Shown: in pieces, positions 3,001-15,000 of the stretch
How positions within the stretch are numbered: the first letter of the stretch is position 1
Layout: each line of letters starts with the position of its first letter
Source: Waddliaceae bacterium
GTDB taxonomy: Bacteria > Chlamydiota > Chlamydiia > Chlamydiales > Waddliaceae
Direction of reading: 5' to 3'
Assembly: GCA_963724325.1 (NCBI GenBank)
Contig: CAVRUH010000001.1
Span: forward strand, 320,001-384,000
DNA: 64,000 bases
Program-made: the position numbers

Positions 3001-6000
3001 AGCATAAGAAGCAACTCCTCCTCCTACACAGGCCACCTTCAACCCATTCGGAGTAGGTTTCGTAGAACCCCGAGAGTAACTCATTTCCAATGATTTAATA
3101 TGAGCTTCCTCATCCAACCCAAACCATTCATCCAAAAATCTCTTTTGAGCTCTGATGGTCAATGTCTTATCAACCCGATCTCGTCGACAAGATGTTTCAC
3201 ACGGCGCACCGCAAATCATCCCGCAAATAGAAGCAAAAGGATTCGGTCCCCTCGCAATTTTATACCCTTCAAGATAATTCCCTGCATGCAAGGCAATCAT
3301 GTAGGCTCTGGGGTCTGTATTGACAGGACACCCATCCCGGCAGTCAATCTGCCGAATATAATAGTCTAAATCCGGTATGACCACATCGTAAATGTCCCTA
3401 TATGCAGCTTTTACCTGTTCGTCCGACAACGCAAACTCCCCACATTTAAACTGGAAATTTACCAAGGTAACGGATTATTTTAAAGGTAAATTAAAAACAC
3501 AAGATATTGAATTGCTGTACAAGATAAGCTCGCTGGAATGAGTTCAATGCACTTGAATTAAAAAAAATTACTAAGTTAAATTTAAATATAAGCCATTTAT
3601 TTTCAATTAGTTAAAAATTTAAAATGCACTGTAAGACATAGATACTCTAACTTTATTAGTTAAAAAAATTATTACATATGTTATTATGAAGTTAAGTAAC
3701 AAATGTTTTAGGTCCATCATAAAAATCTAAAGCCTTCAGGGAGGTTGTACAATGTCAACTCATGAGAGGAATAAAATAAAAGGTGCTACGATGATCGAGT
3801 ACGCAATCATCGTGGGTCTGATTGCTATCGCAGTCACCGCCATTGTAACCACATTGGGTAAAGATGTTAAAACATTATTTACTACAATTGACACGGCTGT
3901 AAAGGCTGCATAAGGAGAAATGATATATTTGTTAAAAAAAATATTTTATATGTTATATGTTATTTAGAGTCATAAATCGGCAAAAAGATTGCTGATCGAC
4001 AAATTTAGAAAATAACCATAAGGAGGTTTGTATGACAAAGTATTCAAAAAATAAAATTAAGGGTGCTACAATGATCGAATATGCGATTATCGTAGGCTTG
4101 ATTGCTATTGCAGTTACTGCCATTGTGACAACATTGGGTAAAGATATTATAACACTATTTACCTCAATCGATACAACTGTAAAAGCTGCTTAATAGCAAA
4201 CACATACTTTTAAGGCCTGTCTTAACAGGCCTTAAATTAATTTAAATTATTGCTAAATAATCATGGGGATTTATATGACAAAGTATTCAAAAAATAAAAT
4301 TAAGGGTGCTACAATGATCGAATATGCGATTATCGTAGGCTTGATTGCTATTGCAGTTACTGCCATTGTGACGACATTGGGTAAAGATATTATAACACTA
4401 TTTACCACAATCGACACAACTGTAAAAGCTGCTTAATAGCAGAAATATACTTTTAAGGCTAGTCTTGACAAGCCTTAAATTATTTTTGCCAATATTAGGT
4501 AGTTTGCCATTATGGCGACAATTGTTGCCGAGCAAGCGTAGGGAACTTCTTTGTATAGGAAGTTCTCTTCATCATTTTTCTTGTTCAACAGTACATTTAG
4601 AATGTTCGTAACAATTAATAGAACCAAAGAAATGGCTAGGATGGGGATTAATAACTTGACTCCCACGCATGCGCCTATTCCCGCATTCAATTTGAAATCT
4701 CCAGGATACATTCCCTCCATACCCCGAAAATGGCGATAAATCTCATTAAACATCCAAAAGATGCCATATCCGAAAATTGCCCCTGCAATACTTTCTGAAG
4801 GGCTGATAATAATCGAAAAAAGAGAACCGATCAACCCTAGCCACACAAAAGAAAGTGTCAATTGATCGGGTAGTATTCCATATTCGTAATCAGTAAAAAA
4901 GCAACATATCAGAATGCAATTAGCAGATAATAGAAAAATAAGGGATATCTCAAGGGGAAAAATCAATGCTGAAAAACCAAAAAGAATTGCCATTAGCCAC
5001 TGGAATAAGAATATTTTTGTGGTTTTTGGAATTTTATCTTGAAAAAACCACCCTATAATATTGCGGGGCTCTCGACCCTCATCGCATCCCTCAAGAAGGA
5101 TTTCTGGGAGAAATTGAACCGTCAGCCCCATAAACCGCCCGGTAAAATATCCCAAAATCATCGCTAAAATGGTATTCAATAAAATCATAAACTCGATATA
5201 TCAAAATAACATTTTTTTAAGCAAGCTTGATGCTGTAGAAAATTTTAATATTTATATTATTAATGTACGTAGATTTGGAATGAGGCATAGGAGGGCTGCC
5301 TATTTTTTCTTATGCTTCCTGTGATTTTTATTTCTAGATGACCAATAAAAATTGTAAAAAAATAATGTATTTGTTATGGCTATCTTCAGGAAGATATAAA
5401 TATATGAAAAAAATTTTGGGACAGTCAATGATTGAATTTGCAATAATGCTTCCTATTTTGATATTACTCGTGACTGGGATTCTTGAATTCAGCATACTTT
5501 TTTATGACAAGGGAGTCATCAGCAGTGCAAGCAGAGAAGGTGCACGGTATGGCATTACGAAAGGCAGCTCAGGCTACCCAACGGCGGCTCAGGTAATTAC
5601 TTACACCAAGACATTTTGCAATAATAATCTCATTACTTTTAGTTCAACTGCTACTTCCCCGACGGTTACTGCTACTCCATCCCAAAGCTCTCCTGTAACG
5701 GGAAGCTCTTTAACTGTCACTATAGGTTATACGTATAAAGATCTTATCCTCCACAACCTCATAAATGAATCGCAGACATATAATTTATCTGAATCTGCAA
5801 CCATGATTTATCAATAAGAGAAGAAAATGGACAAAAAATTAGGAAAAAAGAAAAAAGGCAGTGTGATGATACTACTAGCGATCCTTCTCCCCTCGCTTTT
5901 AGGATTTACCTCAATGGCTATCGATGTAGGAAATATCTATTTCGTTCATAATAAAATGCAAACTGCGGCGGATGCTGCAGCTTTAGCAGCAGCTACTAGT

Positions 6001-12000: not shown

Positions 12001-15000
12001 CCTAATAACAAGCGAAAAAGAAGAACCTTGCGAGACTGCCTGTGAATACCTTCAAAGAGAACAAGAAAGTTTTGATTTAGAAGTTGAGTATCAAATTGAA
12101 GAATGTACTATTGAATCATTTATGTTTGGAACTTAATTATGGATAATCCAGAAATTATTGCAACTTTAAAAAAGGTAAGCGTATTCTCTAAACTTTCCTA
12201 TGAAGCCTTAGAAGACATCGCAGGAGTAATGGTTTTGGAAAATGCCTCAAAAGGGGAGGTGATTTTCAACCAAGGAGATGAAGGTGATGGCTTTTATATC
12301 GTTGGGCAAGGATTAGTTTGCATTACACGCGATGGCAAAGAACTAGCCCGTTGCCAATCCTGTGAGTTCTTCGGAGAACTTTCACTCCTTAACAACGCTC
12401 CAAGAGCTGCCACAGTCACAGCTCTGGAAGATACTCAGTTATTATTTCTCAATAAGGAAGACTTTAATGACCTAACAGAGGTCTTTCCCGAAATACTAAA
12501 AATCTTCGTCAAATCAGCCCTCTCCTACCTACGCAAAACCTGAATTGTTAAGGCCCAACGGTGTACGTAACGGTGTTTGTTGCATTTGTTACGGCCATGG
12601 CTTCGACTGTTGCACATAAGCAATAAGTAATAGTGAGTCCCGATTCTGCAACATTAGTAACCCCAGAGACTAAACTTTGAGGCGTAGTAGTAAGAATTAC
12701 CTCCGAAGCAGACGTCCCTCCTGAAGGGGCAACTAAACTAGCTCCCAAAGTGACCCCCGTCGGTAATGTCGAATCCAACGAAGCATAAATATTTCTTCCA
12801 GTATTGTTAGTCGTGATAGCATAACTAGTTGAAGAATCCAGACACATGGTTGGTGGTTGACCTGGTGTAGCTGCACCTACAGATAAAGTTGCTGGATCAC
12901 CAGAAATAGAAATACAATCAATTGAACCCACAGAATAGGTAATATTGGCTGTACAATTTGTCGCACTGAATAATTGTTGAGTTATAAGCATGGATAAGAG
13001 TAATAAAATATTTCTCATAAGAACTCCATTTTAAAAGAATTTATACTACAATTCAATCAGTAATGGATTAAAGTATTTATTACAATGTTTTTCTTCTCTA
13101 CCAGTTGTTAACCGGGAGCAATGAGCTTGGATGGCTAATCACAAAATTAGTGAAATTATCGCTGCCCTGAATGATATCAACTACACCTTCCCTGCAAAAG
13201 AATTTTGGTATTCCCCATACATAACTAATTTTGATCAGTAAATGTTCATGCTCATCATTTATGACCCAGTTTAAATCTCCGACGTTAATTAATAAAGGCA
13301 ACTTCTTAACATCACAAATACACAATTCTAATTGATAAGGATTCACCACTTGAATGCCCTCCTCAATAAGGGCTAGACGCAATTTTTTCGCCAGAACTGA
13401 TGGACTCAATTCATCACATGGTATAACCCTAAATAATTTCTCTAATGCTTTAGACAAAATTTTAATCCCTAGGCGTGCTAAAATCTGAGTCAAATCATTT
13501 AAGCTAATAGACACCTTCGAAAATTCATCCTCTATGATATCTTTTACAAGCTGAATGTGATCATCGTCTGTATGGCTGATAAGTTCATCTCTAAACATAG
13601 CAAAAGTCATATTACCCTTGTCAGAAAAGTATGATGTCATTTTTTCCGTCGTGATTCTATCTTTGGCAAATCTCTTAATGACATTTCTAATAAGTTGAGG
13701 GGACACAAGACTAGCCAACCTTTTCTTAGCTGGATCAAACATAGTTTCTTGAATAAAATTACGGAAAGAATTTCGATACTGCAATAAAAGCTCCCAACAA
13801 CTTGGAGTAAGGGTCCACGAATGGTTTCCTCTTGTAGATATCAATATTTTTGGAGCACGGCGAATGTTATCGAGATTCATGGATTGCATCCATTTTAACA
13901 AATTTTCTAAAAATTGATAGGGCGAAAGGCATTGATCTATCCGATGCTTAGATATTTCAATTCCATATACTAACCTAAGAGAAATACTTTCTATCCCTCC
14001 TCTCTGATTCAATATCATCAAATCTGCTTTCTTCAAATCCTCAGCCTCAATTTGTTCATCTTTTATTTTTTTAGCACAAAAATTTGCCAAATATGTTTTA
14101 TATCTTTCGGATTCAACCACCTTAAGAATTCCTTTCTTTTCCTGCTCCCTGCTCCTTCCAGTAAAAGAAAGTTCCTTGATGGCCTCTTTTACTACTTCTA
14201 TTACCACATCTTTCAAGTCTGAAATGGAATAAATAAGATGATATCCTCCACGACTATCTAACGAAATGACTCGCAAAGACCTTTCTAGCAGTCTAAATAA
14301 GGCCTCTAACTTTTTTCCACTTCCTTTTAAACCTCTAATTTTCTGAGTCCCTACCCAAAGTTCACCTCCCTCAAAACGGACACCACTTTCACAACGATTT
14401 TCCAACCACAATTGAGCACTTAATTTGTCTTCAATTTTCGTTCGCACATCTTTTTGAAGTTTTAAATATCCACCATCTTCAATCCCCGCAATGCAAGCCT
14501 CAATAACCTCATGCCTATGTTTTGTATCAATAGAGTTCGTATACATGAATTCAATAAGAGCAACTTGCATGTGCATCAACCCACTATATTTATAGCAATA
14601 AAACATCTGTTCTACAAAACGCCCCTCTTCCGCAACATTCAAAAGCTCTTTTAATGTTACTTTCGGCTTTTTCCATTTAATAGTTTCAGGCAGGTCCAAA
14701 ACCCCCCTCATATGTTGTATAGGCACAGCCCCCTTAATTTTCACAGGATCTACAAATATTTCAAAATCTTTTGAATTCGACAACCGCTCTTCAATCAAAG
14801 GACAAATCGGTATCGAATTTAATTCCCCCATTAAACAATGACCAGTCTTAAGCCAGTCTAATATCTTATTAAAAACGTCATAGGTGTTGTTTTCAGTCGC
14901 GTAAATCAAAGAACTAACCGCATAGCAATTAGGCGTATTTTCCTGTCTGACATCTGCAAAAAGAGCCATCAAACAATCATAAAAGACATGAACAGATTCA

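Follow-up and report, generated by a model that had tools for sequence, protein, structure and literature searches.

A chlamydial Tad/Flp gene set with one-chain RcpC-secretin and TadB-TadC proteins, retained in an old clade

Results

Gene content of the locus

The window analysed here is a stretch of 64,000 nucleotides (G000:C1:320001-384000) from the genome of a Waddliaceae bacterium. It carries a Tad/Flp gene set at positions 3752-12136, in which every frame is open and the motifs that we checked are retained. The eleven genes of the first-pass annotation, with their positions and families, were borne out by the open reading frames and Pfam matches as follows (window coordinates, strand, product).

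flp1, 3752..3913, plus strand: 53-aa Flp prepilin (Pfam Flp_Fap, E 7.4e-13)
flp2, 4032..4193, plus strand: 53-aa Flp prepilin (Pfam Flp_Fap, E 3.3e-12)
flp3, 4275..4436 (probable start), plus strand: Flp prepilin (Pfam Flp_Fap, E 1.5e-11)
Prepilin peptidase in the TadV/CpaA role, 4475..5188, minus strand: long-form A24, 237 aa (Pfam Peptidase_A24, E 2.5e-17)
tadE1, 5338..5817, plus strand: TadE-family minor pilin (Pfam TadE, E 4.4e-15)
tadG-like, 5827..7092, plus strand: 421 aa (Pfam Tad, E 2.6e-11, and Tad_C, E 1.2e-7)
tadE2, 7100..7513, minus strand: TadE-family minor pilin (Pfam TadE, E 2e-14)
tadBC platform, 7522..9066, minus strand: 514 aa (two Pfam T2SSF stretches, E 4.1e-7)
cpaF/tadA ATPase, 9063..10400, minus strand: 445 aa (Pfam T2SSE, E 3e-51)
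RcpC-secretin fusion, 10523..12136, plus strand: 537 aa (Pfam RcpC at 63-171, E 6e-16; Secretin at 332-495, E 2.9e-36)
Stand-alone cNMP-binding protein, 12139..12543, plus strand: 134 aa (Pfam cNMP_binding, E 1.3e-24); not counted in the Tad system

Each of the ten machine genes is open and scores above the Pfam curated cut-off for its family, as does the cNMP-binding gene, and neither a frameshift nor a stop interrupts the coding sequence of about 8.4 kb. The Tad genes are arranged as five blocks on both strands, and promoter-like and terminator-like sites are not more frequent at the locus than in shuffled sequences. The three Flp genes, the A24 peptidase, the two T2SSF stretches of the one-gene platform, CpaF and the one-gene RcpC-secretin that had been annotated were all confirmed by Pfam. 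From the annotated set of TadE, TadF and TadG, two TadE-family genes and TadG stand, and a separate TadF is not distinguishable.

The cNMP-binding gene begins 2 bp past the secretin gene. The same gene is absent from all six related Tad loci, and its product has no orthologue in five Tad-bearing relatives, the best match there being 34% identity inside larger proteins. Since none of the six relatives has this gene beside its Tad locus, the control by cNMP that had been suggested is without support.

Pilins and prepilin peptidase

The three flp genes are the sole Flp matches in the genome (n=3), and no TadE match occurs outside the Tad locus. The 222-nt unit of flp2 is 94% identical to that of flp3 and 64% identical to that of flp1, and flp2 and flp3 differ in one residue over their shared 53 aa. 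The frame of flp3 opens at 4263, giving 57 aa; judging from its likeness to flp2, the start probably lies at 4275 (53 aa). Similarly, tadE1 probably starts at 5404 instead of 5338, which would give 137 aa as in tadE2. Flp-family major pilins have a short leader that is cut after G and a mature end of xxxxE(Y/F), and the Flp and TadE leaders at this locus carry this motif: in translation, flp1-flp3 read ...KIKG and then the mature end ATMIEY, tadE1 reads ...KKILG and then QSMIEF, and tadE2 reads ...SSFG and then TALIEF.

The A24 peptidase of the locus is the single A24 match in the genome. Dedicated Tad peptidases (TadV/CpaA) have two catalytic Asp; here the residues D100, D108 and D164 (the last in PGDFKLNA) are invariant in 7/7 chlamydial homologues. 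The peptidases of G000 and of a second genome, G096, have no Cys-rich insert; four of the other five homologues retain this stretch of about 31 aa. Within the order the peptidase tracks the Tad genes: it was found in 8/400 genomes, namely the seven with CpaF and one with a remnant locus (G179, below). The Tad-locus peptidase as the sole A24 enzyme of Tad-bearing genomes is a new observation.

Motor and platform

The cpaF gene overlaps the start of tadBC by 4 bp. The best NCBIfam match of CpaF is the TadA family, at 316 bits and below the family cut-off of 373. The protein also aligns with solved CpaF structures (8rjf/9e24, E 4e-91) over GGTGSGKTT and the later nucleotide-binding blocks. We rejected a type IVa/IVb pilus or a type II secretion system (T2SS) as the identity of the locus: the ATPase favours TadA/VirB11 models (316 bits) over PilB/GspE (35-36 bits), and the pilins are Flp. 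Those systems are marked by a PilB/GspE-type ATPase, a two-domain GspF/PilC platform from a single gene, type IV pilins bearing N-methylated Phe, and PilMNOP or GspCLM. The PilMNOP and GspCLM families are not among the Pfam matches of the locus.

In canonical Tad systems, TadB and TadC are separate platform proteins with one T2SSF domain each (PMC6668835). Here one gene carries both T2SSF stretches, and their order fits TadB followed by TadC, with a weak N-half match and a weak profile-profile comparison. In six of eight canonical loci, the C-terminal half finds its match in the second gene that follows cpaF; the N-terminal half matches the first such gene in two of the eight, weakly. Among 64 homologues found, 60 are 475-521 aa long, and all the named ones are chlamydial. 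The one-gene platform is the sole resemblance of the locus to a type IVa/IVb pilus or T2SS.

RcpC-secretin fusion

From its sequence and AF2 model, the RcpC-secretin protein has a helix at its N terminus, then a disordered linker, a single RcpC plus BON-like module, the secretin domain and a tail with Cys; a pil_N domain was not detected by Pfam. Among solved structures, RcpA 8odn matches it best by sequence (E 2.6e-31), and Foldseek with the AF2 model retrieves secretins (RcpA, E 1.1e-11) and RcpC 9gzr_B (E 1.6e-4). RcpC and secretin share one chain in 19/19 homologues of the clade, with one to three RcpC-BON modules per protein. The G000 protein is the shortest of 23 compared. Its nearest relative, P0295 (58% identity), is also a single-module form, and this single-module layout has therefore persisted through much divergence. 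The other two single-module forms, including P0295, carry about 95 residues between helix and module that the G000 protein lacks. The RcpC-secretin and TadB-TadC fusions are both clade-wide, and both are new here.

Parts that were not found

The locus had been called complete, which overstates the case: with the queries used, TadZ/CpaE, TadD and RcpB were found neither in the locus nor in the loci of six relatives nor in the rest of the genome. The first-pass annotation had itself seen no TadZ/CpaE or TadD in the locus, and this holds. TadZ/CpaE, a ParA/MinD-like protein, is treated in PMC6668835 as a trait that Tad shares with archaeal systems. The Pfam TadZ_N model gave no match in G000, a search whose control was also silent in every genome. 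The Hyphomonas protein at the CpaE position, used as query, retrieved nothing in G000, G096, G044 and G156 (four of the five Tad-bearing chlamydial genomes). The ParA-like genes in this genome (84.6% complete) all lie outside the Tad locus and are of the 250-aa ParA type or other. For TadD (a TPR pilotin) and RcpB there was no candidate among the Pfam matches of the G000 locus and the six related loci, where a divergent protein is possible. The absence of TadZ and TadD is common to all six related loci and is therefore a trait of the clade rather than a recent loss.

Distribution and age

The narrow distribution described earlier in the order and family was reproduced: CpaF-type matches occur in 7/400 genomes scored in the order, G000 counted, and in one of seven other genomes of the family. 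Six other chlamydial genomes carry an intact Tad gene set, with CpaF identities of 52-70%, a divergence comparable to that of their threonyl-tRNA synthetases (ThrRS; 70-76%). The CpaF search likewise repeated the reported pattern, with 65 protein clusters at 51-78% identity plus three partial ones, and 49% or less beyond. These roughly 65 metagenome clusters form one clade, in which organism names are exclusively chlamydial; a branch supported at 99 sets this clade apart. In the CpaF tree, Tad-bearing genomes group by genome family. The intact gene set in six diverged genomes, together with this grouping, argues for long purifying selection and not for decay.

The composition of the locus agrees with the earlier statement that it shows no G+C anomaly: G+C is 39.4% against 40.1% for the genome, and a GC3 of 0.351 compares with 0.378 +/- 0.055 in 46 further ORFs from the window. 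Chlamydia-type genes surround the locus, which occupies 323.7-332.1 kb on a contig of 1,111,177 bp, and the same contig holds RecA, ThrRS, Tol-Pal, a UPF0137 gene adjoining parA, and F-box, HECT and MORN proteins. Taken with the CpaF distribution, the tree and the ThrRS comparison, this supports the proposal that the locus belongs to its own deep chlamydial clade, is old and is not a recent import.

On the other hand, the CpaF-type system was not found in 393 of the 400 sampled genomes. One genome, G179, keeps a remnant in which tadV is whole but flp is reduced to residues 1-29, tadE to its C-terminal part and tadG to its N-terminal part; cpaF, tadBC and the secretin gene are absent within 10 kb on either side. 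The wide absence and this decayed remnant show that the system is dispensable.

Discussion

Rather probably, the locus encodes a streamlined Tad/Flp (type IVc) pilus machine that is intact and that a chlamydial lineage has maintained for a long time. Counting against this reading are the missing TadZ/CpaE, TadD and RcpB, the dispensability of the system, the short RcpC-secretin of G000 and the lack of any excess of promoter-like or terminator-like sites. In this machine, the lone A24 peptidase would cut the three Flp prepilins after G (KIKG/ATMIEY) as well as the two TadE-like minor pilins. A CpaF hexamer would power the one-piece TadB-TadC, which would pull pilins out of the inner membrane and build them into a thin fibre, with TadE/TadE/TadG as its primers. 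The fibre would exit via the secretin, which is joined in one chain to an RcpC "alignment" ring, and a single protein species would serve as periplasmic conduit and outer-membrane pore; the N-terminal helix of RcpC-secretin, if kept, would be an inner-membrane anchor as well. Most likely, an extracellular stage would use the fibre for attaching to host cells or surfaces. Our data show the gene content, the motifs, the clade with its age, and the fusions; from homology we infer assembly, fibre and fibre role, and it is reasonable to suppose that the pilus may work and may attach to hosts.

The tad locus of Aggregatibacter actinomycetemcomitans (flp-1 to tadG) is one co-directional operon and includes TadZ, TadD and RcpB. 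Its parts list matches ours in Flp, TadV, RcpC, RcpA, TadA, TadB, TadC, TadE/F and TadG, but the genes of G000 stand in five blocks on both strands. The Cpa locus of Caulobacter and Hyphomonas, with cpaA-F and tadB- and tadC-like genes, has in common with ours the Flp-type pilin, the A24 peptidase, the CpaF motor (the solved CpaF matched above is that of Caulobacter), the T2SSF platform, RcpC/CpaB and the secretin. In Hyphomonas johnsonii (L034), CpaB (335 aa, RcpC) and CpaC (430 aa, pil_N, BON and Secretin) are separate genes and the platform is encoded by two genes of 327 and 315 aa with one T2SSF each, whereas G000 has one gene in either case; a 409-aa gene also stands at the CpaE position, for which no counterpart was found in G000.

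The Tad system of Pseudomonas aeruginosa contains the RcpA nearest to the G000 secretin (8odn, a secretin-pilotin structure of RcpA with TadD) and an RcpC that matches the RcpC part by fold (9gzr). According to PMC12307814, RcpC and the N domain of RcpA bind each other and are needed for Tad function in P. aeruginosa, an RcpC-RcpA "alignment complex" was shown in 2025, and RcpC has an N-terminal helix as anchor. A fusion of both proteins therefore fits a working machine. In P. aeruginosa, RcpC and RcpA are made separately, a 12:13 mismatch between them is proposed, and TadD is the pilotin (PMC12307814), whereas the chlamydial clade has one chain, which forces equal numbers and carries one to three RcpC-BON modules and a Cys-bearing C-terminal tail, and no pilotin gene nearby.

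The atypical parts of the locus, that is, no TadZ, the fusions and as many as three periplasmic modules on the secretin, also suit a machine that is active mainly in something other than adhesion, such as protein secretion by a short pseudopilus, DNA uptake or contact-dependent action on the host membrane, of the kind for which predatory or parasitic bacteria use Tad systems on prey. The Tad peptidase is moreover the lone A24 enzyme in a genome that also holds a T2SS-type secretin and ATPase. PMC10066038 associates Tad with a predatory or parasitic way of life in Bdellovibrio-like organisms and in the phylum Omnitrophota, and reads it as a host- or prey-contact device in the latter, small host-dependent relatives of chlamydiae in the PVC superphylum. 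An Omnitrophota CpaF (L057) has 38% identity to ours and falls outside the chlamydial clade. We regard such a main role as unlikely, though deserving notice: Flp genes in a tandem of three, together with the customary set of minor pilins, are hallmarks of fibre-forming Tad loci, and the six relatives show no conserved gene for a secreted substrate, a nuclease or a DNA-binding protein next to the locus.

It is less probable still that the locus is a silent relic in G000, with open genes and no assembly for want of TadZ/TadD or through the shortened RcpC-secretin. The patchy distribution with the clear G179 remnant, the shortest secretin of the set and a peptidase that lost its Cys-rich insert would fit such a relic. 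However, no frameshift or stop was found, the motifs are intact, and the features in question recur elsewhere, TadZ and TadD lacking in all six related loci, the single-module secretin being shared with P0295 and the peptidase insert missing from G096 too. That the locus is not chlamydial at all, its contig having been binned wrongly or the genes recently acquired from a different phylum, is highly improbable. Tad loci are often mobile and the nearest named CpaFs outside are alphaproteobacterial, but the locus lies inside a 1.1-Mb contig with chlamydia-type genes and its G+C and GC3 equal those of the genome. No tRNA (window 1-22000) and no integrase (by Pfam among window ORFs of at least 90 aa) was found. 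Non-chlamydial CpaFs reach 49% identity at most, against 52-78% within the clade, and the branch of the clade is well supported.

The maintained Tad/Flp machine thus remains our preferred reading, and it suggests that some intracellular chlamydiae make a surface fibre so far unlooked-for. We know of no chlamydial entry model that includes pili, and a literature search found no paper on chlamydial Tad pili. Flagellar genes have already been reported from marine chlamydiae, and a Tad pilus would join them as a chlamydial surface appendage. A Tad system that is old and conserved across several environmental lineages would also offer a candidate, open to testing, for how these bacteria first attach to protist hosts. 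More tentatively, and with some doubt, this could be a chlamydia-specific Tad machine without TadZ and pilotin, in which one polypeptide forms the alignment ring or rings, possibly anchored in the inner membrane, and the outer-membrane secretin. One to three RcpC-BON modules and the Cys-rich tail would tune it to the disulfide-cross-linked envelope, and Flp fibres of the infectious stage would make the first host contact. If true, a phylum that is assumed to depend solely on adhesins and type III secretion would turn out to have a pilus too.

The clade further offers a natural experiment for pilus biology, as RcpC and secretin are covalently joined in equal numbers. With the joined platform halves and the missing TadZ and pilotin, the fused secretin sketches a minimal Tad machine for diderms, one that would lend itself to expression and structure determination. 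Finally, G000 also has a chlamydial T2SS (GspD/GspE) at a separate locus, where a T2SSE match at C1:499953 lies beside a secretin at C1:498812. This system belongs to the same machine superfamily as Tad, lacks a dedicated A24 peptidase in this genome, and is of the type classed as "generic", without minor pilins and GspLM (PMC6668835). The sole A24 peptidase, co-occurring with Tad, bears on how the chlamydial T2SS manages without one in other genomes.

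Organization of the Tad locus

The genes for a Tad/Flp (type IVc) pilus are arranged in five blocks over both strands of the window, not in a single operon. According to the ORF listing and Pfam, with all family matches of locus genes above the Pfam cut-offs, they are as follows.

Genes of the Tad locus and the adjoining gene (window positions)
3752-3913 (+): flp1
4032-4193 (+): flp2
4263/4275-4436 (+): flp3
4475-5188 (-): A24 peptidase
5338-5817, likely start 5404 (+): tadE1
5827-7092 (+): tadG-like gene
7100-7513 (-): tadE2
7522-9066 (-): tadBC, 514-aa T2SSF protein with two T2SSF stretches
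9063-10400 (-): cpaF, 4-bp overlap with the start of the platform gene
10523-12136 (+): RcpC+Secretin protein, 537 aa
12139-12543 (+): cNMP-binding protein, 134 aa, starting 2 bp past the secretin gene

The start and end assigned to this locus by the first-pass annotation are correct, since the window is G000:C1:320001-384000, but its remark on the offset is wrong. Every Flp, TadE and A24 match in the 2.37-Mb genome (84.6% complete) falls within the locus. Our promoter and terminator scan gave sites no commoner than in shuffled sequences, and four soil-metagenome DNA runs from one study contain only 7-10% of the sampled sequence words.

Pilins and prepilin peptidase

The three Flp proteins read KIKG followed by ATMIEYAIIVGL, and in the TadE pair a G precedes QSMIEF in one and TALIEF in the other, leader ends that fit the prepilin-peptidase site of Flp-type pilins. 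Over 222 nt the flp2 and flp3 units share 94% identity, and the figure for the flp1 unit is 64%. The Tad peptidase is a long-form A24 enzyme, and all seven chlamydial peptidases aligned share D100, D108 and D164 (PGDFKLNA). Its Cys-rich A24_N_bact region is matched in four of five relatives (G096 apart), has no match in the peptidase of the related locus L018, where the Cys-rich motif is lacking, and has lost about 31 residues in the peptidases of the window and of G096. A sequence search of the PDB gave no solved relative of the peptidase.

Across the order, the A24 family exceeds the cut-off in 8/400 genomes, namely the seven CpaF bearers (see below) and G179, which carries a remnant of the locus. 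All eight A24-bearing genomes are thus tied to Tad genes. A T2SS-type secretin and ATPase are found in G000 at C1:498812-501104; how T2SS pseudopilins are matured in A24-less chlamydial genomes would call for an explanation, if a T2SS is present there.

CpaF and the one-gene platform protein

The window CpaF matches CpaF of Caulobacter, whose structure is solved (8rjf, 9e24), at E 4e-91, and the P-loop and the later nucleotide-binding blocks are conserved in the alignment. The nearest CpaF (78% identity) is borne by a 28,714-bp ENA contig, which is shared by the protein clusters P0039, P0295 and P0362. The called proteins on this contig are short, at 362 aa for CpaF and 311 aa for the TadBC homologue, and its Tad locus may be broken or mis-called.

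Denise et al. (PMC6668835) describe TadB and TadC as carrying one T2SSF domain each and as having arisen by fission. In the window both domains are on one 514-aa protein. The length is 475-521 aa in 60 of the 64 tadBC homologues found, all of which are chlamydia-like. Compared with eight canonical loci, the C-terminal half of tadBC is similar to the second gene that follows cpaF in six (E 1e-9 to 3e-5), and its N-terminal half to the first gene that follows cpaF in two (E 8e-4, 0.7); profile-profile comparison for the TadB/TadC order with hhalign was weak (probabilities 14-49%). A putative fusion of neighbouring tadB and tadC fits these matches. No solved relative of TadBC was retrieved by sequence search of the PDB.

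The RcpC-secretin protein

Among solved proteins, the secretin part of the 537-aa protein is closest to Tad RcpA (8odn, E 2.6e-31). The AlphaFold model, built from 22 sequences with a mean pLDDT of 64.7, places an N-terminal helix at 2-22, a disordered linker at 25-63, the RcpC domain at 68-170 and a well-predicted BON-like domain at 178-275, the secretin part being patchy. The top Foldseek matches of the model are secretins (9wfd, 6.5e-17; RcpA-TadD 8odn, 1.1e-11), and RcpC of the Tad alignment complex is matched as well (9gzr_B, E 1.6e-4). The N-terminal helix may be kept as an anchor or cleaved off as a signal.

Adjacent, separate genes encode CpaB (RcpC) and CpaC (pil_N+BON+Secretin) in the comparison locus of Hyphomonas johnsonii; the chlamydial clade has one gene for the two. 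Both RcpC and secretin domains are present on 19/19 homologues, and the next match is an ordinary 501-aa CpaC at 35% identity. In the protein atlas, none of the named clusters shown for RcpC-secretin carries both domains, all with scores <0.9 that serve as leads only. Evans et al. (2025; PMC12307814) showed RcpC to be an inner-membrane-anchored dodecamer that contacts the N domain of RcpA and is required for the Tad system to function; the available text of that paper mentions no fusion. Since the two were shown there to bind, the chlamydial protein joins proven partners in one chain, which would enforce equal subunit numbers.

When an HMM of the RcpC+BON-like module (~195 aa) was run on 23 proteins, three had one copy (window, nearest relative P0295, and L018), 17 had two and three had three. 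With one to three module copies across chlamydial lineages, the RcpC-secretin protein is a hot spot for domain shuffling. Pairwise scores suggested that the first half of the short window protein resembles repeat 1 and the second half repeat 2. An in-frame deletion between two RcpC repeats was considered and set aside, as trees built from the module halves gave no resolution and P0295 is also single-module. In P0281, P0283, P0286 and others, an extra segment of ~95 residues either precedes the first module or lies between modules. The C-terminal tails past the secretin domain carry cysteines in 6/6 aligned proteins; any connection with the disulfide-cross-linked outer membrane of chlamydiae is speculative.

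Distribution and age of the locus

An order-wide CpaF scan (E <= 1e-20; 400 genomes scored, one left unscored) gave matches in eight genomes. That of G065 (34% identity, two copies) was dropped as a VirB11-like protein, leaving seven bearers including G000 across four genome families; a phylum-wide sample gave 6/400, the same genomes. In a large protein collection we found 65 CpaF clusters at 51-78% identity and three partial ones, beyond which identity drops to <=49% (Alphaproteobacteria and others), in agreement with the roughly 65 clusters reported by the first-pass annotation. A FastTree analysis of 269 CpaF rows placed all 72 that are chlamydia-like on one side of a branch with support 99 and stem 0.47; as identity defined the group, the branch reflects a clean gap and is no independent test of a clade. 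The candidate sister in this tree is a single long branch, P0138, which we did not accept as an identified donor or sister.

The genome-derived rows follow the genome families: G000 groups with G096, G156 and G268 stand together beside G044, and G141 groups with G026. The window CpaF is 70% identical to that of G044, 67% to those of G156 and G268 and 52% to that of G026; the corresponding ThrRS values are 71%, 71%, 76% (partial) and 70%. The tree and these identities date the locus to roughly the time at which these families split, and argue that it was mostly lost and not recently imported. Identities to the same-genus genome G096 are unreliable, since its ThrRS region (G096:C1:965396-967318) matches in pieces only, with many internal stops (as many as 6 TGA), a sign of assembly indel errors or of a broken gene. 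In the G179 remnant (L083, G179:C23:135500-155400, about 8360-10550), flp residues 1-29 run into the tadE C-terminal part. A tadG N-terminus and a whole A24 peptidase come next, and neither cpaF nor tadBC nor a secretin gene lies within 10 kb.

Contamination or recent import of the locus is very unlikely. The locus sits within a 1,111,177-bp contig, and the window also encodes RecA, ThrRS, TatC and Tol-Pal, parA with a UPF0137 gene (a chlamydial pGP6-D-like family), and F-box, HECT and MORN proteins. No tRNA was found in window 1-22000, and no integrase by Pfam among window ORFs of at least 90 aa. The locus has a G+C content of 39.4%, compared with 40.1% genome-wide, and a GC3 of 0.351 vs 0.378 +/- 0.055 for 46 other ORFs of the window, so the earlier statement of no G+C anomaly holds, and the identity gap, the tree by genome families and G+C together uphold the placement of the locus in a chlamydial clade rather than as a recent import. 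Those close relatives of the CpaF, TadBC and RcpC-secretin proteins that bear a name come from MAGs labelled 'Chlamydiales', 'Waddliaceae', 'Parachlamydiaceae', 'Chlamydiae' or 'Chlamydiia', with no other name.

Missing parts and possible function

Six related loci (L013-L018) in the other Tad-bearing genomes hold the same parts in different genomic neighbourhoods, the tadE-tadG-tadE block of G096 being on a separate contig. None of the six contains a ParA/TadZ-like or TPR gene. TadZ/CpaE, TadD and RcpB were not found in the locus, the six related loci or by queries of the genome (84.6% complete), the TadZ_N Pfam search being uninformative for the presence of TadZ; the description of the locus as complete was therefore too strong. 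Some chlamydia-like CpaF clusters (P0010, P0009, P0017, P0031) measure 580-637 aa against the usual ~445, and the 589-aa P0010 matches TPR_2. If CpaF carries a fused TPR part there, this could point to the missing TadD-like function. The genes for the cNMP-binding protein, orf156 and orf903 are absent from all six loci, and the cNMP protein has no orthologue in the genomes of five Tad-bearing relatives. Thus the cNMP link is particular to G000 and we do not count the cNMP gene as part of the system, and the suggested cNMP control was not borne out.

By homology, the peptidase would mature the minor pilins as well as Flp, CpaF would build the fibre together with TadBC, and the fibre would cross the RcpC ring(s) and the secretin, both from one protein. 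We lean towards a working Tad system, because the frames are intact and the motifs are kept over family-level divergence. A silent relic in G000 is improbable, since the odd traits of its locus are common to relatives. Adhesion of the extracellular stage would be the default reading for Flp pili, and another use of the machine than adhesion is rather unlikely.

Public annotation already labels these MAG proteins as CpaF, TadB or RcpC/CpaB family. Our literature search, in which supplementary tables were covered in part, did not bring up any paper on chlamydial Tad or Flp pili. The main texts of four papers on chlamydial genomics (PMC5826181, PMC5604735, PMC8242063, PMC9666466) contain no pilus word, and the 11 supplementary files of PMC8242063 covered (of 16) gave no pilus match. 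PMC9816063 names a pilus only in inferring a type IV pilus for the common ancestor with Verrucomicrobia, and PMC11809670 only in connection with the type IV pili of Endozoicomonas.

Neighbouring genes

Convergent with the cNMP gene, orf156 (window 12548-13018, -) encodes a Thr/Ser-rich protein of 156 aa with a signal-like N-terminus and no Pfam or NCBIfam match, which the protein atlas groups with uncharacterised ~155-aa families from several phyla (score 0.97). Directly downstream of the locus, orf903 (13098-15809, -) encodes 903 aa with no family match. Eukaryote-like domain proteins are encoded at 33029-34633 (-; F-box), 62775-63857 (-; HECT ubiquitin ligase) and 21349-22614 (+; MORN repeats), such proteins being typical candidates for effectors that amoeba-associated bacteria direct at their hosts. 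At 37625-39178 (-), beside thrS, a chromosomal parA (250 aa) adjoins the UPF0137 gene (E 6e-95), a pair known from chlamydial plasmids (pGP5-D/pGP6-D). Finally, umuD-like (Peptidase_S24), umuC-like (IMS) and recA genes stand in a row at 22553-25438 (+), an SOS-type mutagenesis module.
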